Part shown: piece by piece, positions 51,575 to 61,192 of the stretch
Layout: each line of letters opens with the position of its first letter
Position numbering within the stretch: position 1 is the stretch's first letter
Source of the DNA: a bacterium
GTDB taxonomy: Bacteria > Oederibacteriota > JAAXVQ01 > JAUVAV01
Direction: 5' to 3'
Assembly: GCA_021108215.1 (NCBI GenBank)
Contig: JAIORK010000036.1
Coordinates: 22,948-86,947 of the forward strand
Length of the DNA stretch: 64,000 nucleotides
The notes under the pieces: generated by a model
The model's database searches: none
Seen by the model: the letters and a program-made list of their open reading frames with translations, nothing else
Told to the model about the DNA's origin: nothing
Program-made: the position numbers and the translations under genes

Positions 51575-52876
51575 TTAGAGCCCACCGGAGCGCGGGATCG
51601 TCGCGTCCGTTAAGTCCACCCGGGGTGCGAGACGACCCGCCCGAACAGCATTTTGCATGCAGTGATAAATCCAGAGAAGTTTATTTTCATCCATCCCGAT
51701 TTTCCTTAGATGCGCGAGTGAAATACGCACATCAGCAATCTGATAAAGATAATAATCCACTTCCTTCCAGACCAACTCTGCAGACCGGGAGGTTCGATAA
51801 GGCGCTTCCACCAATAATGATTGCTCCTGAATAACTTTGGGAACATTCAAGACACGCGCCAGTTCAATAAGCTGACTTAGATAGACATCTTCCAATGGAT
51901 TGATATCATACGCCAAATCACCAAAGCGGGTGCCATACCCCAACAACCGCTTGGTTTTATTCATACTGCCAATGACCAAAGCATTATTGGCATCCGCCAA
52001 TTCGTACAATGCCAGCATCCGAACACGCGCAATTTTCTTCTTCTTTTCTCCGACCAGCCCGGATCCATTGGTAAAACTATTTTGCAGCCGCGGCCGCAGA
52101 TCGTGCATTGCCAACTGGTTTTTCAAACCACGGCTGATCAAATCAGCCCGGGCGCGTGTGGCTGCGCTTTTTTCGGTTTCAATAAAATGAACAAACCGGA
52201 CTTTTTCTCTTCCCAGCGCAGCCATCACCAACGCAGCGGTGACTGCCGAGTCCAATCCGCCGGAAATGCCCAAACATACGCTTTGTTTGCCGGAATGTTC
52301 AAATTGTTCTTTAATGAATGCTACAATCCGCTCACGGGCAACCTTGGTATCAACCCCCGGAAATTTTAGATTCCGCAAACCCACCGGAACCTCTCCGGTA
52401 AAGCTTTTGATCGCTTGGGCATGTTCCTGAAAAAAAAGATTCGAAAAATCCATTTCCACAATGCCTTCAAACGCTGAAAAATCCTGAAATCTATCCGTAC
52501 GCTGTTTGGGCCGGCGATTGGCGGTTCCGCCGCGATTATGATAGCTCTTTCGCTGCACTGGTTTTTTTTCATCCCTCTGTACCGGACGCGGTGCGCTCGC
52601 TGCTTTCTCCGGAACGGGGTTTGAACGCGGCGGACTTGCCGTGTTCTCCATCGCAGGTCTTGGATGCGGAACACTCCTTGCTTTCTCCGGTGCAGACATC
52701 GGGCGGGGCGCTTTCGACGGTTGCTTCGCCGTCAACCCCGTGTTCCCATCTTTTGGAACCAATGGTTTTTTTCGCCATTCACGATAAGGACGGCGTCTGC
52801 GTTTGGTCGCTCCGGCTGGTTTTTTCTCTCCAGACGGCGTGTTCGGTTTTCTTTCTGACTGTCCCTCTTCGAGCAT
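51575..52876 (-). CDS. nadE: NH3-dependent NAD+ synthetase with a ~140-aa basic Pro-rich N-terminal extension
   Basis: The PP-loop is SGGLDSAV. The canonical NadE region starts about residue 142. The full-length frame is open and has an AGGAG RBS 6 nt before the ATG at 52876. Confidence 0.75.
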   Translation of the reverse strand: MLEEGQSERKPNTPSGEKKPAGATKRRRRPYREWRKKPLVPKDGNTGLTAKQPSKAPRPMSAPEKARSVPHPRPAMENTASPPRSNPVPEKAASAPRPVQRDEKKPVQRKSYHNRGGTANRRPKQRTDRFQDFSAFEGIVEMDFSNLFFQEHAQAIKSFTGEVPVGLRNLKFPGVDTKVARERIVAFIKEQFEHSGKQSVCLGISGGLDSAVTAALVMAALGREKVRFVHFIETEKSAATRARADLISRGLKNQLAMHDLRPRLQNSFTNGSGLVGEKKKKIARVRMLALYELADANNALVIGSMNKTKRLLGYGTRFGDLAYDINPLEDVYLSQLIELARVLNVPKVIQEQSLLVEAPYRTSRSAELVWKEVDYYLYQIADVRISLAHLRKIGMDENKLLWIYHCMQNAVRAGRLAPRVDLTDATIPRSGGL

Positions 52877-53846: not shown

Positions 53847-54815
53847 TCAAGAAAGCGGCCCTGCCGCCATGCTGTCCAGCACAGCTAAAAATGCCGCCTC
53901 TGTCTCACAGGTATTCACCTGTCGCCGGTAAACCGACGCACCCCGCAATCCTTTCAGATACCAAGCTGTATGCTTGCGCATTTCCAGGCGCGCCGTGTGC
54001 CCGCCTTTGAGCGCCTTCAATTGTTGATAATGTCCACGAATAATCCCCACACGCTCATTCCAGCCTGGTTCCAAAAGCGTCTCGCCGGTTTGAAGATATT
54101 GATTGATGTTCTGAAAAACCCAGGGACGTCCCATGGCACCGCGCCCCACCATCACGGCGGCACAGCCGGTCTGATCAAGCATGGCCTTGGCATCCGGGCC
54201 GCTTAGTATATCACCATTGCCTATCACCGGAATGGTCACGACATTGACCACATCTTGAATATGCCGCCAATCGGCCCGCCCCTCAAACCGTTGCGCACGG
54301 GTCCGCGCGTGCACCGCAATAGCCGCTGCCCCCGCAGCTTCAACCCGCTGTGCAATCTCAATCGCGTTGATGGCGGACTGATCCCATCCTATTCGAATTT
54401 TGACAGTAACAGGTACCGGACATTTTTTGACACATGCGACCACAATGGACTGAAGCAATGCCGGTTCTTTGAGAAGTGCAGAGCCGCCGCGATGACGGAC
54501 CACTTTGGGCACCGGACAGCCGAAATTAAGATCCACCATATCTGCTCCGGCTTGCGCTAACTTAACAGAGGCTTCGGCCATGATATCGGGATCTGCACCA
54601 AATAGTTGAAATGCCAAGGGATGCTCTTCTGCCTCTGTTGCCAGCATTTTCAGGGTATTGGGCTGGTTGCGCATAATGCCGTGACAGCTGAGCATTTCCG
54701 AGTAAACCAGTGCCGCGCCATAACCACGGCACAATCTCCGAAAAGGAAGATTTCCCACACCGGCCAATGGCGCCAGGACTGCCTGCCCCTTTATTTTCAA
54801 ATTGCCTATATCCAT
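53847..54815 (-). CDS. dusB: tRNA-dihydrouridine synthase
   Basis: It has a TIM barrel with the catalytic Cys region (LNFGCP) and an FMN-binding pattern. Confidence 0.85.
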   Translation of the reverse strand: MDIGNLKIKGQAVLAPLAGVGNLPFRRLCRGYGAALVYSEMLSCHGIMRNQPNTLKMLATEAEEHPLAFQLFGADPDIMAEASVKLAQAGADMVDLNFGCPVPKVVRHRGGSALLKEPALLQSIVVACVKKCPVPVTVKIRIGWDQSAINAIEIAQRVEAAGAAAIAVHARTRAQRFEGRADWRHIQDVVNVVTIPVIGNGDILSGPDAKAMLDQTGCAAVMVGRGAMGRPWVFQNINQYLQTGETLLEPGWNERVGIIRGHYQQLKALKGGHTARLEMRKHTAWYLKGLRGASVYRRQVNTCETEAAFLAVLDSMAAGPLS

Positions 54816-54852
54816 TCCTGTCCCTTACTACCAAAAGGCTGTACCCTAATAA

Positions 54853-55176
54853 TTAGTCTACCAACATTTCATTGATCACCGCTTTAATTTGCAGACGGGT
54901 TTTGGCACTTAGCTTTCCAATCTTTTTAACCAATCGGCGTTTGTCAACGGTCCGGATTTGATCAAGAACAACCCATCCTTTTTTATTCTGAAATGTCAGA
55001 CCAACTCTGGTGGGATATTTCTTTGATTGTGTGGTCATTGGCGCAATAATAACAGTTGAAATATACCGATTCATTTCATCAGGAGAAATGACAACACAGG
55101 GTCTGGTTTTCTTGATCTCATGACCCATTGCAGGATCCAGACAAATAAGATAAATATCATATTGAGTGATCACCAC
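54853..55176 (-). CDS. mazF: MazF/PemK-family endoribonuclease toxin
   Basis: The 107-aa product reads YDIYLICLDPAMGHEIKKTRPCVVIS... Confidence 0.8.
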   Translation of the reverse strand: MVITQYDIYLICLDPAMGHEIKKTRPCVVISPDEMNRYISTVIIAPMTTQSKKYPTRVGLTFQNKKGWVVLDQIRTVDKRRLVKKIGKLSAKTRLQIKAVINEMLVD

Positions 55177-55418
55177 TTCCAGTCACCTTTATCCAGATCA
55201 AGATAATCATCAATAAGCAGGGTATCTTGTTTATTATTGTTCATTGCCAAAAACTTTGCATCCCAGTCTTTCCGAATATCTTTTTTGACTGGTTTTAAAA
55301 CGATACGGTCACTGGTTATTTCGGCATCAACTTGCTCGCCGATATGACATTGCCGCAAAATAGCTTTTGGCAATCGAACACCTCTGGAATTTCCAATTTG
55401 TATAATATCAATCCGCAT
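55170..55418 (-). CDS. mazE: MazE/AbrB-family antitoxin
   Basis: The SpoVT/AbrB swapped-hairpin region is MRIDIIQIGNSRGVRLPKAIL. A GGGAGG RBS precedes the internal ATG, and the gene overlaps the mazF start by 7 nt. Confidence 0.7.
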   Translation of the reverse strand: MRIDIIQIGNSRGVRLPKAILRQCHIGEQVDAEITSDRIVLKPVKKDIRKDWDAKFLAMNNNKQDTLLIDDYLDLDKGDWKW

Positions 55419-55548
55419 TGTATTCACCTCCCTTACTTCAAATGTAATTATATTGTAATTACATTTGTTTGTCAAGCATTCATGCCTATCATCGCTATAG
55501 CGCCGGCACGAAGGACGAAAATGCAAGTCGGCTATATGCATATCTGTC

Positions 55549-58500
55549 TCACCGACTGTATTTTTGCAAAATATTGCGAAACTCCATAAATCCTTTGCTT
55601 AATAAATAATTACAAAACTCTTCTGCTCTCTTTTTACTCGCTTGATGATTCTTACTGAAAACACTCTCGAGTATCGCCATAATCTCATCCTGATGAAACG
55701 CAATGAAATTTATTTCATTTTCCGCTAAAGCTACTAATATTTTAACAACTTCAGTTGGATAAGTTTCAACCATTGTTTTAAGTTGTTCCATAATTGGTGG
55801 AATTGCTTCGATATGCTTGGTTTTTTCCAGCACAAATAATAATTGATCAATCGCCCACTGCGAGTCACACTTCCCGGATCCAAACCAATGCCCAAACGCC
55901 GACATTTCATTCAAAAAGATTTCCGGACTCGTTGATAAAAAAAGCATTTTGCATCGCTTTTCCCACATTTTTTTTATGCGCTGCATTTCCATAGCTGATA
56001 AATTTTCCGTGCTCCCTAATATATCAAAACCGATCATTTGCATTGCTGTCCCTCTTAATTCATCCGGCGCTCTTTTCCAAAAATTTATAAAAATATCCGA
56101 TTCTAATTCCAGTTTTCCGCGAATATAAAACAACATCAGATGCCAAGCCAATCGCTTATCTTTTTCTTCCGCAACATCCTCAATTTCGTTGACTGCCCGA
56201 GCATACTCTGTTTTCAATATTTCAAAAACATTATCATAGGGCTGACACAACAAAATATATGCCTTCCAGGCCACAGCCCAATATTCACGTTCCCTCTCAT
56301 CTTCCGGGAATATCCGGGTCCGTGCTTTGGCTGACCATTCCGGTTTTACTTTTGCCAGCCAAGGAAACCAACGCCCGTATACCGAATGAATAGCCAAGCT
56401 GGAATCTTGCGTATGATCAAGATGTTTATCCAAAATCTTTTCAATTTCAGGCATCATTTCTTCTCTTTTATCCTCTTCAAAATCATCTGTTTGACTCTGG
56501 ATTTTATTTCTGTAAATCCACCACATATAATTCATAACTGCATGCATGGCTTTTCCGCGGGTAGAATTGATTGAACGGGAATATGGTTCCATGTCATGTG
56601 TGTTTTCATATTCACTTGTCGGATCCGAATCTTCGGTTAATGGCTCTAAAACAGTCCAAACGCTTTTCCGTAGCTTTAAGGGGATTAAATTTTTACGCAT
56701 ACCTTCAACCAGGCAGTCTGCTATCTCCCCCCTGGCTTGGCCCCTATCGTCCGCATTTTCCTCTTTTATTTCGCGTGACTGTCGCATCCACTGACCAAGT
56801 TCCAGCATAGACGCCCACTCCAGCTTTGTATTGGTATTACGGATCACTTCTTTAAATCCAAATAATATCCAAAATAAATAATTTGAAGTATATGGACTGG
56901 TAAGCCGGGTAAATTGCCGTGCCTCGACAGAATACAATTCAGGCCTGGCTTGCACCAAAGACGACAGCATTTGCGCCAATCCTTCCGCAGAAACGTCTCT
57001 GACTTCTGCTGATGGTTTCCAAGCGTTTAAAAATTCAACCAGCTTCTCAATTGGCAAGGCGGCTAACTCGTCCAGGGTTTTTGGGCTGGATTCCCATCCC
57101 CCCTCCACTACAACTCCGGTGTTTCTCTTTTTCTCCGCTACACCATATTCTTGAACTAATTTCGTATAATAAGGCTGCCATGCCGCTGGCAAAGCTTGGC
57201 CAAACCTGGCCAGACAATCCCTTTGCCAGTGCCGGCGAACTTGCTCAGCCTCATCTTTCCCGGGTTTTCTGTACCTCTTGTCAAAATCCGGCCCGTCTTC
57301 AACCCATTTTAAGATCATCGCCTGTTTATCCTGCGGTAAAAATCCAAAACCCTTTTCCAGCAGCGGTCCATATTCATCCCAGCATTCACCACTTGCAAAT
57401 AACGCCTTGTCTGATAAATATTTATCTGTCAGTTCCGGCGCTGACCCGGGACAAAGGCTTAATAAATGAAGCGCTATCCGCTTGAAAAGCATCCATGGTT
57501 TCTCGCTTGAAATTTTTACCAAAACATCAATACCTATAGTCGCATCCAATTGCGTGCCTGTCTTTAATATCAAATCGATTAGAATATTTCTAAGCTCGTA
57601 CATCTCATATTGCATTGGTTTTTCAATCTCCGGGCGCCAAAAAAAAGAATAATCATTATTATTTTCCGGTTCCTCATCCTTGGCTTGTGAATATCTCAAT
57701 GCCATATCCAACATCTCGCATAGCCATCGGAACACAGGAACACCGGTTGACTTTGCAAGTTCCGGAATAATCTTCTCCGTTATCTCTTTATACCGGGAAA
57801 TTTCTACTCTTGTTTTCGGATGCGGGCCATCCCAATAGCGCTCTGCGTTTTCTTTGCTCTTCTGCCAGCGAGGATCCGGGAGTATTACCAGCATTTTTTT
57901 CGCCAGCCCGAAAGCTTCCTCCGCTTTTCCTGCCAAAGTATAATACAGGACCAGTTCAGCCAAATGCTTGTCAAGCGGATAAAACAAATATTCATTTACC
58001 ATCCACTTGGCTGCTTTATCTATTAAACTCATAGCTATATCAATCGGCAGATTCAGCGTTGCTTTAACCAAACCATCAATAACATAGACATTTTGTGTGT
58101 CAGGGATGATTAAAATAATATCCGCAACTGCTTGGGGCGCTATTTTGGCCATCCGCACTAAATAACCGGATTCCGCCCAAAATGGAAACGTTATGGAACC
58201 ATCTTCATTTTGTAGCAGCTCCGGGGGACTTCGAAAAACTGATGTATCTTTTAGCCGTGCAAGCCATTTTGGATTAGAGCATCTTTCAAAAAAGTATTTG
58301 CGTATAAAATAGACATCAGGAATTTCTTTGTAGAGTTTTTCCGCATCCTTAGAAGTCGGATTATCTTTTTCCAGTAATTTATCCAGTTCGGCAATCAATC
58401 CCGAGCTATGATTGCGCAACGCATGTAAAATCCGCTTCAAATAAACATCCATGTCCGACAAGTTTTTTTCCAGATCACTTGGAGTCATTCGCGGAGCATC

Positions 58501-59391
58501 CAATCTATCTCGGTGCGCTATTTTTTGCAGGGTTCCAGGCTTTACAAACCACTGCAATTCATCTTCTTCTCTCTCTCCTGTTAATTCTTTTAACAACCTC
58601 TCTATTTCTTTTTTATGCGCATCATGTTCACCTTGTTTTTTTTCTATATCCAGATAAAGTCTCAACACATCCCTGATACTGCTTTCAATTTCTCTAAGCA
58701 AATGCCCCAGCAAATGCGAGCGAGTCTTTAATTCCCCTCCATTTCGTCTTATCCAGCAAATATCCCAATAAAACGCTTCTGCTCCAGGCCCGGCCAGTTC
58801 TTTTAAGTCCTCATAGACTTGTCTTTGGATGCCATCTAATTGAAAATTTTGCTGCGGTCCTAGGGGCATCTCTGCTGCTTTTTTGTCCACCTGCTCAGGC
58901 AATTTTCCCAGCTCTAATATCTTTTCCAATTTCGCAAGCGTCGCAATTGTGATATTTTTTTTCCCTTTTTCAAGAGCGGAAATATCCGGCTGCTTTAAAC
59001 CTGTGCGGCGGGCCAAATCTGCTTGTGTCCAACCCTTCTGTTCTCTGGCCTGTTTTATTTTTCTTCCAATTACCTGATTCTCTTCAGCCGGCGCACCTTT
59101 AATCCGCTTGTTTTTACCTTTTTTTTGTTCAAGCAGTTCATAAACACGCTCCCACTTGGCATAATAATCCGGCGCCTCACTGGTGCGCTTCCATTCCCGC
59201 CGGATTTTCGGCCACACTTCAGTAAATTGCTCTTTTGTGATGAAGGTAAAAATGTCTTTGGGGCGATCATTGCGTGTTAAAACACGGATAATTTTTTTCG
59301 GAAAATCAGGATGTTCAGGAATCTTAAGGATTCGCTCCGTTTCCTTCAAGGCATCTTCCGGCAAATCCCAAAAATAATCTCCGATCTTCAT
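55549..59391 (-). CDS. Large (1280 aa) protein with an embedded XRE-type HTH (residues ~105-165) and a ~1100-aa alpha-helical repeat region of unknown function
   Basis: The HTH is GRKIKQAREQKGWTQADLARRTGLKQPDISALEKGKKNITIATLAKL. The remainder is helical with no recognised catalytic motif. Its ATG overlaps the stop of the upstream NTase gene (ATGA). Confidence 0.5.
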   Translation of the reverse strand: MKIGDYFWDLPEDALKETERILKIPEHPDFPKKIIRVLTRNDRPKDIFTFITKEQFTEVWPKIRREWKRTSEAPDYYAKWERVYELLEQKKGKNKRIKGAPAEENQVIGRKIKQAREQKGWTQADLARRTGLKQPDISALEKGKKNITIATLAKLEKILELGKLPEQVDKKAAEMPLGPQQNFQLDGIQRQVYEDLKELAGPGAEAFYWDICWIRRNGGELKTRSHLLGHLLREIESSIRDVLRLYLDIEKKQGEHDAHKKEIERLLKELTGEREEDELQWFVKPGTLQKIAHRDRLDAPRMTPSDLEKNLSDMDVYLKRILHALRNHSSGLIAELDKLLEKDNPTSKDAEKLYKEIPDVYFIRKYFFERCSNPKWLARLKDTSVFRSPPELLQNEDGSITFPFWAESGYLVRMAKIAPQAVADIILIIPDTQNVYVIDGLVKATLNLPIDIAMSLIDKAAKWMVNEYLFYPLDKHLAELVLYYTLAGKAEEAFGLAKKMLVILPDPRWQKSKENAERYWDGPHPKTRVEISRYKEITEKIIPELAKSTGVPVFRWLCEMLDMALRYSQAKDEEPENNNDYSFFWRPEIEKPMQYEMYELRNILIDLILKTGTQLDATIGIDVLVKISSEKPWMLFKRIALHLLSLCPGSAPELTDKYLSDKALFASGECWDEYGPLLEKGFGFLPQDKQAMILKWVEDGPDFDKRYRKPGKDEAEQVRRHWQRDCLARFGQALPAAWQPYYTKLVQEYGVAEKKRNTGVVVEGGWESSPKTLDELAALPIEKLVEFLNAWKPSAEVRDVSAEGLAQMLSSLVQARPELYSVEARQFTRLTSPYTSNYLFWILFGFKEVIRNTNTKLEWASMLELGQWMRQSREIKEENADDRGQARGEIADCLVEGMRKNLIPLKLRKSVWTVLEPLTEDSDPTSEYENTHDMEPYSRSINSTRGKAMHAVMNYMWWIYRNKIQSQTDDFEEDKREEMMPEIEKILDKHLDHTQDSSLAIHSVYGRWFPWLAKVKPEWSAKARTRIFPEDEREREYWAVAWKAYILLCQPYDNVFEILKTEYARAVNEIEDVAEEKDKRLAWHLMLFYIRGKLELESDIFINFWKRAPDELRGTAMQMIGFDILGSTENLSAMEMQRIKKMWEKRCKMLFLSTSPEIFLNEMSAFGHWFGSGKCDSQWAIDQLLFVLEKTKHIEAIPPIMEQLKTMVETYPTEVVKILVALAENEINFIAFHQDEIMAILESVFSKNHQASKKRAEEFCNYLLSKGFMEFRNILQKYSR

Positions 59392-60110
59392 GAGAGTTCA
59401 CCCTCCAAAAACGCGCTCAATTCATCATCTAAATGACGGATAATCATTTTTGATTTGAGTTTGCGGTCATAAATGGCATCAGCATAATCCAAATAATCTT
59501 GCTCAAACTTTTGGGTTGAAAATCTCTTGCGCCACCCTATCATCGTTCGCTGATAGGTGCGTGGAATCGTTTTTAAAAATGAATGTAATGGCTCGATCTT
59601 TTTGGACAAATAATAGAGATCAATAACATCACGCGGGACATTTCGACCAACAGCTTGCGGTTCTCCATGTCCATTCTTCTCAGGTACAATTCCGGTAATC
59701 GCGATTATTTTTTGAAAATAAATCCGATTGACATCATACACCGGTATACCCTTAATTTTCTTAATAAAATTTTCCCTGGTTAGCTGCGGAAGGACATCTT
59801 CTACGAAATCAAGTTTCAATGATTCGGAAGTTTTCTCTATAGGGATGGTATAAAAATGAACATTCATTTTCCCGGGATGAGTAATTTCATCCTTGAATTC
59901 CGGTTTGTATCCACCTTTTTTTATTTCTTCAAGAATCGAAACAATTTCCCCATAATTAAACTCAAGTGAAAAGAAATCCAGATCGCGTGAAAAACGATGT
60001 TGAAGATAAAAAATCTCCAATGCCGTCCCGCCGGCCAAAGCAAAATTCCCGGGATTTTTGGAAAATAAGTTCAAAATTTCCAGATGTAATTTTCGCAGTC
60101 TTTTATTCAC
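59388..60110 (-). CDS. Nucleotidyltransferase of the AbiEii/AbiGii toxin family (DUF1814-like)
   Basis: The N-terminal NTase-fold motif is ALAGGTALEIFYLQHRFSRDLDFF, i.e. GG..L....HR.S.DLD. It is 240 aa. Confidence 0.5.
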   Translation of the reverse strand: MNKRLRKLHLEILNLFSKNPGNFALAGGTALEIFYLQHRFSRDLDFFSLEFNYGEIVSILEEIKKGGYKPEFKDEITHPGKMNVHFYTIPIEKTSESLKLDFVEDVLPQLTRENFIKKIKGIPVYDVNRIYFQKIIAITGIVPEKNGHGEPQAVGRNVPRDVIDLYYLSKKIEPLHSFLKTIPRTYQRTMIGWRKRFSTQKFEQDYLDYADAIYDRKLKSKMIIRHLDDELSAFLEGELS

Positions 60111-60124
60111 ATCAACACCGCCAA

Positions 60125-60175
60125 CAAAATATAGCTTATATGCTATATTGATTATAGTTTAAAAGCTATATTTTG
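60125..60175. promoter_or_regulatory. 13-bp perfect palindrome (candidate operator) upstream of the NTase operon
   Basis: caaaatatagctt and aagctatattttg are exact reverse complements separated by 25 bp of AT-rich DNA with internal ctatat direct repeats. It lies 15-65 bp upstream of the NTase start. Confidence 0.4.
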
Positions 60176-61192
60176 TCAACTATCCATTGAAGCAAGATTG
60201 GCATAAGCCGGCAAATCCCAAGCAGAGCGCCGACCCGCTGCCAAATAGCGCGCGCCTACGGATGCTATCATGGCGGCGTTGTCTGTACACCACTCCACCG
60301 GCGGGCTAAAAAACGGGATACCCTCTTGATGTGCGGCCGCAGAAAACGCCTCCCGCAAAGACCGGTTGGCGGCAACCCCGCCGGTCAGTACCAAAGCATG
60401 TACCTCATGCTTTTGAATAACCGCCAGGGTTTTGCGTACCAAATCCTCAATAACCGTCTTTTGAAACCCGGCGGCAATCTCTGCCGCCACCAATTCTTTT
60501 CCTGCTTTACGACTGCTCTCGAGCAAATAACGAACCGCAGTTTTTATCCCGGAATAGGAAAAATCCGCAGACCCGTCTTTCATACGCGGAAGGGTGAACC
60601 GAATACCGGATTGCGGGTGATTCTTGGCTGCCGCCTCAATGGCCGGACCACCGGGATATGGCATCCCCAACAATTTGGCAACTTTATCAAATGCCTCCCC
60701 CACCGCATCATCCCGGGTACTGGCCAGCAATTCATACTCCGGAAGATCGCCCGCTGTCACCAGATAAAGATTAGTATGTCCGCCGGATGCAACCAGCCCG
60801 ACAAAGGGATAGGGTAAAGCGGGATGATTCAATTCCGAAGCAAACAGATGGCCTTCCAGATGGTTAATGCCAATAAAAGGCAGTTGACGTGCAAAAGCAG
60901 CTGCCTTGGCCCATGTCAACCCAACCAATAAAGCACCCATAAGACCGGGACCGCAGGTGGCGGCAATGCCGTCAATATCATCCCAGGATAACCCGGCCTG
61001 AGAAAATGTCTCATCAATGACCCGGGGTAGATCGCGCAGATGCTGCCGCGAGGCAAGCTCCGGAACCACCCCGCCATAAGGCGCATGCACCTTGAGCTGC
61101 GATGCCACAACAGAGGCAAGCACTTCCCGCTGCTCTGTGACCACGGCTGCTGATGTTTCATCACAAGATGATTCAATGCCGAGTATTTTCAT
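60176..61192 (-). CDS. tsaD: tRNA N6-adenosine threonylcarbamoyltransferase
   Basis: It reads MKILGIESSCDETSAAVV. Two metal-binding His lie in the HLEGHL context. Confidence 0.9.
   Translation of the reverse strand: MKILGIESSCDETSAAVVTEQREVLASVVASQLKVHAPYGGVVPELASRQHLRDLPRVIDETFSQAGLSWDDIDGIAATCGPGLMGALLVGLTWAKAAAFARQLPFIGINHLEGHLFASELNHPALPYPFVGLVASGGHTNLYLVTAGDLPEYELLASTRDDAVGEAFDKVAKLLGMPYPGGPAIEAAAKNHPQSGIRFTLPRMKDGSADFSYSGIKTAVRYLLESSRKAGKELVAAEIAAGFQKTVIEDLVRKTLAVIQKHEVHALVLTGGVAANRSLREAFSAAAHQEGIPFFSPPVEWCTDNAAMIASVGARYLAAGRRSAWDLPAYANLASMDS

Follow-up and report, generated by a model that had tools for sequence, protein, structure and literature searches.

The 64,000-nucleotide (nt) stretch of contig JAIORK010000036.1 analyzed here (the window) carries a two-gene operon in which the gene for an AbiEii-family nucleotidyltransferase (NTase) of 240 amino acids (aa) precedes that for a protein of 1280 aa. 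The large protein is a four-part fusion of a helical domain, an XRE-type helix-turn-helix (HTH), a HEPN-like bundle, and a Dsr1/Avs7-type sensor. It is no expanded antitoxin: the ~165-aa partner usual in this NTase subfamily is joined in it to a complete protein of a large stand-alone defense family. A preliminary description of the locus had reported a partner four to five times larger than usual, which is correct for the size and wrong for the implied enlarged antitoxin, the partner being fused to a sensor protein of the Dsr1/Avs7 type. It had also called the module undescribed; this holds for the antitoxin-receptor fusion and for the partner type, an N-terminal domain (NTD) followed by an HTH, but not for the individual parts, which are of known kinds. 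The two open reading frames (ORFs) and the domains of the fusion are as follows.

59388..60110, minus strand: AbiEii-family nucleotidyltransferase ORF, 240 aa, GTG start; presumed toxin
55549..59391, minus strand: large-protein ORF, 1280 aa
59107..59391, minus strand: N-terminal helical domain, aa 1-95 of the 1280-aa protein; presumed toxin-neutralizing module
58912..59085, minus strand: XRE/Cro-C1-type helix-turn-helix, aa 103-160; presumed operator-binding repressor domain
58387..58836, minus strand: HEPN-like helical bundle, aa 186-335; presumed effector
55552..58386, minus strand: Dsr1/Avs7-type helical-repeat sensor domain, aa 336-1280

As originally described, the two ORFs are coupled by an ATGA overlap, read at 59388-59391, and a GGAGG lies ~10 nt 5′ of the ATG that starts the 1280-aa ORF. 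The locus, which runs tsaD-NTase-1280 aa-mazEF-dusB, was recovered from four independently assembled contigs with 0 nucleotide differences in the NTase and 1280-aa genes (NCBI records MCD4813678.1 and MCD4813677.1). Since identical copies occur in four independent assemblies, the long ORF is real and intact.

Sensor and HEPN-like domain of the large protein

The PADLOC model of Dsr1 (PDLC04166) matched aa 335-1279 over profile positions 296-1225 of 1227 (E=5.1e-46), i.e., all of Dsr1 but the SIR2 domain, and homologues of the sensor score 1e-56 to 3e-60 against the same model. Pfam returned no SIR2 hit for the 1280-aa protein, Pfam and NCBIfam scans returned no P-loop, NACHT, or STAND family, and the profile of the whole core family (HEPN-like domain and sensor) found no solved relative in PDB. 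According to a January 2026 preprint (PMC12803255), Avs7 and Dsr1 have a bilobed sensor of the TPR type in common, which is paired with many N-terminal effectors, including that of a Streptomyces "HEPN-like RNase" protein. These effectors are required in Avs7 and Dsr1, and the trigger of SeAvs7 and EcDsr1 is the phage major capsid protein, whereas links to HTH, AbiE, or toxin-antitoxin systems go unmentioned (PMC12803255). In our searches, a Streptomyces plasmid protein had both the HEPN-like domain and the sensor. The core of the window protein belongs to this described class of defense proteins. The region had first been characterized as helical repeats with no recognizable enzyme motif, a view superseded by the Dsr1 sensor match and by a conserved HEPN-like domain.

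As in Dsr1, an effector-type domain stands directly N-terminal to the sensor, and the homology between aa 336-1280 and the C-terminal sensor of Dsr1 takes in nearly all of the latter. Stand-alone relatives of the core occur in defense islands, another feature in common with Dsr1 and Avs7. The window protein differs from Dsr1 in the HEPN-like bundle that takes the effector position in place of SIR2, from Avs7 in the absence of a STAND NTPase between effector and sensor, and from both in the extra N-terminal module, a presumed antitoxin and repressor, and the upstream NTase gene.

The bundle at aa 186-335 is presumed to be the effector because it occupies the position of SIR2 in Dsr1. It is well predicted (predicted local-distance difference test score [pLDDT], 84; predicted template-modeling score [pTM], 0.82). 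Foldseek gave no significant hit for it, and the best template-modeling (TM) scores belonged to HEPN toxins; its closest natural structural neighbors were the HEPN toxins of pairs with minimal nucleotidyltransferases (MNT-HEPN; 5yep, 8xdj, and 7ae2). At the sequence level, nothing was found in Pfam with alignments of eight members (E up to 10) or 20 members, a profile search against PDB sequences was equally empty, and no sequence profile detected HEPN. Across 90 homologues, H226, H230, R233, W281, A292-H293-R294, and R301 are conserved at 91-100%, and E234, the commonest residue at its position, is present in at least 80%. Both the HEPN-like fold and the conserved His/Arg residues are kept in the window copy. 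The homologues have no conserved motif of the HEPN catalytic type (Rx4-6H), and the Rx4HxY acceptor motif is missing as well. The conserved residues nonetheless point to a probable active site. We call the domain HEPN-like and regard RNase activity as its presumed function.

An exhaustive HMMER search for the core without the HTH retrieved 4403 representative clusters at a threshold of E<=1e-3, of which 1982 remained at E<=1e-30. A word-indexed search had returned only 15 relatives, and the idea of a very rare core family was discarded in view of the HMMER counts; only the fusion is rare. Among the 148 closest core relatives, 90 carry the HEPN-like domain, which in 85 of them starts no more than 40 residues from the N-terminus. 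The remaining 58, about 960 aa long, consist of the sensor alone, and an overlapping ORF lies upstream of at least some of their genes. Stand-alone core genes adjoin type I restriction-modification (R-M) genes and were also found near integrases, a TIR-WD40 gene, and a PIN gene.

Three further observations concern this family. In locus L002 (2298-10443), the 1119-aa relative P0003 starts 1 base past the hsdS stop codon, fourth in line with hsdR-hsdM-hsdS, which suggests co-transcription with the type I R-M system. The ORFs that overlap and precede sensor-only genes (the latter encoding 853-967 aa) encode 166-229 aa (about 6315-7004 in L007, L008, and L009; 1059-1724 in L010). Two of them (L008, 6315-7004, and L010, 1059-1724) did not score against the hidden Markov model (HMM) of the N-domain; by eye, these upstream ORFs have aH..RE and W..L...(A/C)H motifs in common with the HEPN-like domain, and the effector may be a separate subunit in sensor-only lineages. 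Finally, the conjugative Legionella pneumophila plasmid NZ_CP016871.1 (L104, 4022-6391) carries a sensor-family gene of 789 aa that lies 40 bp past an IS3-family transposase gene, appears N-terminally truncated by the IS3 insertion, and has IS256 copies on both sides; on account of the truncation, this homologue was set aside as a reference for Dsr1.

The nucleotidyltransferase, its partner, and their operator

The assignment of the 240-aa protein to the AbiEii/AbiGii type, made initially from its GG..L...HR.S.DLDFF motif (here GG..L...HRFSRDLDFF), was borne out by Pfam (AbiEii PF08843, DUF1814; E=1.9e-19, 71 bits against a cutoff of 22.5) and by PADLOC, where 18 of the 19 matching models are AbiEii (AbiEii E=8.6e-14). 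The search for relatives yielded 237 NTase homologues. In an alignment of 26 sequences, G27, G28, S41, D43, D45, D101, D105, K134, R156, D161, and D164 are invariant, and at least 90% of the sequences have R39, E104, and R160. The protein thereby displays an intact set of Pol-beta-type catalytic motifs, namely, hG[GS]...D-x-D, a second acidic motif, and K...RD..D, and its RFS-DLDF stretch aligns with the JHP933 structure (4o8s). The context of S41 (R39-F-S41-R42-D43-L-D45) has the same spacing as R76/S78/K79 of MenT3, as compared from the published description. In MenT3, the serine within this layout is the auto-phosphorylation site by which antitoxins silence such toxins (PMC11375011), and a recent preprint has recast AbiE along the same lines (bioRxiv 10.64898/2026.01.19.700257). 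AbiEi and MenA antitoxins work by inducing auto-phosphorylation of the toxin, an ability that extends to unrelated antitoxin folds (PMC11375011; bioRxiv 10.64898/2026.01.19.700257). By analogy, the NTase would be a tRNA-targeting toxin of the MenT/AbiEii kind.

The XRE-type HTH noted earlier near the N-terminus of the large protein was recognized by HTH_3 (E=2e-13, aa 108-165), by HipB and C-protein matches in PDB, and by the PADLOC capH, control-protein, and RmrA models. Stand-alone homologues of 165-171 aa (P0016-P0020) share about 50% identity with the N-terminal ~165 aa of the fusion, and one of them is encoded directly 3′ of an AbiEii gene with a 4-bp overlap. AlphaFold2 (AF2) predicts aa 1-90 as all helical (pLDDT, 80-92). 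The helical domain at aa 1-95, the portion of the partner specific to the family, has no Pfam match and no detectable similarity to AbiEi/COG5340, and no AbiEi model of Pfam, NCBIfam, or PADLOC hit the 1280-aa protein. The domain may nevertheless neutralize the NTase, probably through auto-phosphorylation of Ser41, as suggested by the analogy with AbiEi and MenA.

To read gene neighborhoods, we scanned one genome per species, which gave 209 NTase relatives, and took 80 loci together with those collected earlier. A homologue of the NTD-HTH partner lies directly 3′ of the NTase gene in 82 of the 82 loci with a readable downstream gene, nearly always with a 4-bp overlap. This neighborhood analysis, which had been proposed at the outset, established the pairing, and the toxin-first order is the norm for the NTase subfamily. 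The inverted gene order reported in the preliminary description is thus real as an NTase-first arrangement but no anomaly; it is also known for SanaTA and RlegTA. The partner type was found in Omnitrophota, Elusimicrobiota, Planctomycetota, and related uncultured phyla. Partners are 148-177 aa long in about 74 of the 82 loci. Longer ones comprise 435 aa in four loci, which represent a single candidate-division FCPU426-type locus, 1249 aa in two (L001/L017, from one and the same contig of Goldiibacteriota), 1299 aa in an uncultured bacterium, and at least 725 aa in Firestonebacteria, where the contig end cuts the gene. The 1249-, 1299-, and >=725-aa partners share the HEPN-like and sensor core with the window protein. 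Conserved co-occurrence of the two genes in other genomes was thereby found for the NTase with a long partner as well, in Goldiibacteriota, Firestonebacteria, and others.

The 435-aa partner (L014, 5711-7018; also in L015, L016, and L018) consists of NTD and HTH followed by an unrelated C-terminal domain of ~270 aa, for which Pfam and PADLOC gave no match. Its operon lies between lexA and a Y-family polymerase gene, with an MNT-HEPN pair ~2.6 kb downstream.

These distributions bear on a rival explanation, in which the operon would work like MNT-HEPN (type VII) systems: the upstream NTase would be an antitoxin that nucleotidylates the HEPN-like domain, and activation of the sensor would overcome the block. 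The HEPN toxins of such pairs are the structural neighbors of the bundle, and an NTase gene placed first, directly upstream of and translationally coupled to that for a protein with a HEPN-like fold, fits the MNT-then-HEPN order. However, the NTase is of the DUF1814/AbiEii family (PF08843) rather than a minimal NTase, and the HEPN-like domain is devoid of the Rx4HxY acceptor motif. Moreover, most relatives of either gene occur without the other: a HEPN-like domain is wholly missing from about 74 of the 82 related NTase operons, and stand-alone HEPN-like/sensor proteins have no adjacent NTase. We consider this explanation very improbable.

Upstream of the NTase gene, the following elements were identified.

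60151..60179, minus strand: sigma-70-type promoter of the NTase operon, TTGACA-17 nt-TATAAT, 12/12 consensus matches
60130..60170, minus strand: two operator-like palindromic sites, TATAGCTTTTAAACTATA (60153-60170) and TATAGCATATAAGCTATA (60130-60147)

Both sites are of the form TATAG-N8-CTATA and are enclosed by an inverted repeat with 24-nt arms (60124-60147 and 60153-60176; 88% complementary), which overlaps the -10 box. This imperfect repeat replaces the 13-bp perfect palindrome reported previously, as the interval 60100-60185 contains no perfect palindrome of at least 10 bp. Among 77 unique regions upstream of related operons, 66 contain one or more copies of TATAG-N6-8-CTATA, against 4.6% of shuffles, and 52 contain two or more, against 0.5% of shuffles. 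An HTH_3-type domain together with a palindromic operator at its own promoter is what characterizes XRE/Cro-C1 repressors, and both occur here. Since the operator is kept across the family, the HTH partner very probably autoregulates its operon, in line with the autoregulation proposed earlier for the HTH protein.

Distribution of the fusion and proposed coupling of its modules

The fusion was found in five lineages that are 32-64% identical: the window, Goldiibacteriota, the uncultured bacterium, Firestonebacteria, and the protein P0145. Identity of the core to that of the window is 64% in Goldiibacteriota and 37% in both the uncultured bacterium and Firestonebacteria; P0145 is 32% identical over the full collinear length and is preceded by a gene fragment that overlaps it by 4 bp and whose end resembles NTase C-termini. 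The fused operons sit in different genomic contexts. Neighbor-joining trees of the NTase and of the NTD-HTH region took in the four fused loci from the genome scan (77 leaves). In both trees, these four and the 435-aa-partner locus L018 form one clade of exactly 5 of the 77 leaves, which indicates that the NTase and the fused partner co-diverged as a unit. The fused cores also group together. The simplest reading of these sequence comparisons is one old fusion that would have been retained through divergence, with the NTase co-diverging. All modules of the fusion retain their conserved residues, and the operator is retained as well, which argues for selection on the whole unit.

We propose that the operon is a self-repressed, two-gene defense system in which an antitoxin is tethered to a receptor for a phage protein. 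Its first module would be an AbiE/MenAT-like pair, in which the NTase toxin is followed by a translationally coupled partner. The partner would repress the operon at the two TATAG-N8-CTATA operators over the promoter and, by analogy with AbiEi and MenA, would keep the NTase inactive, most likely by inducing auto-phosphorylation of Ser41. The second module would be a complete defense protein of the stand-alone type, made of the HEPN-like effector and the Dsr1/Avs7-type sensor, to whose N-terminus the partner of the first module is fused in frame. In an uninfected cell, the fusion protein would sit on the operator and the NTase would be neutralized. As suggested by its relatives, the sensor may bind a phage structural protein, with the HEPN-like domain as its own effector. 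Upon binding, the fusion would change conformation or oligomerize, thereby switching on the HEPN-like effector and withdrawing the antitoxin/repressor function. Newly made, unphosphorylated NTase would then modify tRNA 3′ ends, so that translation stops and the infection aborts. We give this coupled model an even chance, an estimate that spans the identities of the parts, of which we are confident, and their coupling, which is much less certain.

Several considerations weigh against the coupled model. The antitoxin role of the helical N-terminal domain is drawn from its position only, and the two modules could work side by side. A stably phosphorylated toxin would not be quickly re-activated by release of the antitoxin. 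The sensor is distant, with similarity at the HMM level, and its ligand may be other than a capsid protein. Furthermore, AbiE of Streptococcus agalactiae failed to protect E. coli in a screen of 32 coliphages (bioRxiv 10.64898/2026.01.19.700257).

A more specific form of the model is a receptor-gated toxin-antitoxin switch, in which one phage structural protein would at once activate the HEPN-like RNase, derepress the operon, and end phosphorylation of the toxin. We put this forward tentatively and hold it to be rather unlikely in so complete a form. If true, one sensor would drive two translation-targeting effectors, and the operon would contain the first toxin of the AbiE/MenAT family with a hard-wired trigger identifiable from sequence.

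The main rival to the coupled model is that the modules are functionally independent and merely have a polypeptide and a promoter in common. The AbiEii/NTD-HTH part would then be an addiction and autoregulation cassette that stabilizes the HEPN-like/sensor gene and governs its expression, and that gene would sense and kill alone like its stand-alone relatives, with no signal passing from sensor to NTase. Consistently with independence, each module is met far more often by itself than in a fusion: the partner is short in about 74 of the 82 NTase loci, and 85 of the 90 close core relatives that bear the HEPN-like domain have no HTH extension, with no NTase among their neighbors. HTH regulators are, in addition, common on defense genes, as the capH, control-protein, and RmrA matches illustrate. 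Conversely, the fusion has survived divergence to 32-37% identity with its conserved residues intact and its NTase co-diverged, and the 435-aa variant within the 5-leaf clade has another C-terminal domain rather than the short form, which suggests that the cargo matters. Independence is a possibility to be taken seriously, if a doubtful one.

Flanking genes, known systems, and significance

The operon lies between two housekeeping genes, with a mazEF pair on its downstream side.

60176..61192: tsaD, upstream flank of the NTase operon
55170..55475 (including the promoter), minus strand: mazE, 82 aa, ORF at 55170-55418 with the true start ATG at 55418; PF04014, E=3.8e-7
54853..55176, minus strand: mazF/PemK-family toxin, 107 aa; PF02452, E=2.2e-32
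53847..54815: dusB, downstream flank, past mazEF

The tsaD and dusB flanks and the look of an inserted accessory module, both pointed out in the preliminary description, were found again: GC content falls to 0.37-0.43 over about 54750-60250, as compared with 0.50-0.55 in both flanks. In the metagenome collection, TsaD relatives reach 52% identity at best, and an empty-site comparison found tsaD next to dusB in none of the closest ones. No NTase relatives were found in viral contigs. That the NTase/1280-aa pair is a defense-type accessory module within a low-GC islet is supported.

This setting is relevant to a last explanation, that the locus is not involved in defense, the large protein being a transcription factor with a helical-repeat scaffold and a housekeeping or stress role, and the NTase a regulatory enzyme. 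The location between tsaD and dusB, on the same strand, and an HTH with a conserved operator are compatible with such a role. We judge it exceedingly improbable, given the low-GC islet, a homologous operon in an unrelated context, core homologues in R-M and integrase neighborhoods, the strong match to a defense-protein model, and the very patchy distribution; no conserved synteny with tsaD/dusB was found.

The mazEF pair had been noted as following directly on the same strand, which is correct. It has its own sigma-70 promoter (12/12 consensus, 55447-55475), with a perfect inverted repeat of 12-nt arms (CAAATGTAATTA / TAATTACATTTG, 55439-55467) over the -10 box. No mazEF follows the homologous operon in Goldiibacteriota (L001/L017) or in the related FCPU426-type loci L014-L016. 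Because it has a promoter and an operator of its own and is missing beside the Goldiibacteriota and three FCPU426-type operons, mazEF is a neighbor, not a component of the module, although it has the low GC content in common with the islet.

Two side observations were made in this part of the window. A 22-nt direct repeat, identical at 19 of 22 positions (GGCATCTTCCGGCAAATCCCAA / GGCATAAGCCGGCAAATCCCAA, 59350-59371 and 60200-60221), occurs at the 5′ end of the 1280-aa ORF and the 3′ end of tsaD, where a WDLP peptide is encoded by each copy on the minus strand. The repeat lies at the upstream edge of the islet and is probably due to chance. An NAD synthase-like ORF of 433 aa (51575-52876, minus strand) has an N-terminal extension of ~150 aa that is rich in Pro, Arg, Lys, and Ser and has no obvious domain.

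In PADLOC, the window proteins gave no hits beyond the AbiEii, HTH-type, and Dsr1 models. Like AbiE and MenAT, systems now assigned to type VII, the operon encodes a DUF1814/AbiEii NTase, here the presumed toxin, whose active site is laid out alike (GG...R-x-S-[KR]-D-x-D, then a further acidic motif, and K...RD..D), is bicistronic with overlapping genes, and has a DNA-binding partner and palindromic operators over its promoter. It differs in that the partner is an unrelated helical domain plus XRE HTH instead of an AbiEi/COG5340 winged HTH encoded upstream, the toxin gene coming first and the partner downstream in 82 of 82 loci, and in that the fused clade has ~1100 extra partner residues of defense sensor and effector. 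In SanaTA, RlegTA, and SdenTA, the gene for a DUF1814 toxin stands ahead of that for its antitoxin (Sberro et al. 2013, summarized in bioRxiv 10.64898/2026.01.19.700257), the same toxin-first order as here, and phage-defense phenotypes are reported for SanaTA and RlegTA in that account (bioRxiv 10.64898/2026.01.19.700257). Their antitoxins are small and COG5340-like, with no fused sensor.

The coupled model also has a conceptual parallel in an unrelated family. CapRel(SJ46) is a fused toxin-antitoxin that senses a capsid protein directly, the antitoxin domain itself being the sensor. In both cases, an antitoxin element would be part of one polypeptide with a phage-sensing surface, and binding would release a toxin that targets translation. 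Here, however, the toxin is a separate protein, and sensing would fall to a large receptor domain that evolved independently.

New in this locus are the antitoxin-receptor fusion and a widespread, uncharacterized NTD-XRE partner type for DUF1814 toxins, with toxin-first order and a TATAG-N6-8-CTATA operator. Were the modules independent, the finding would be a modest one, i.e., a defense gene riding on an addiction or regulation cassette. The fusion indicates that recruitment of the Dsr1/Avs7 sensor extends beyond enzymatic effectors to toxin-antitoxin circuitry. Because a toxin partner is joined here to a receptor whose homologues bind phage capsid protein (PMC12803255), the fusion offers a concrete, testable trigger hypothesis and a natural construct for the switch by which phage infection may turn on AbiE/MenAT-type toxins. 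Collectively, parts that are all of known kinds are combined in a fusion suggestive of a direct link between sensing of the virus and control of the toxin.

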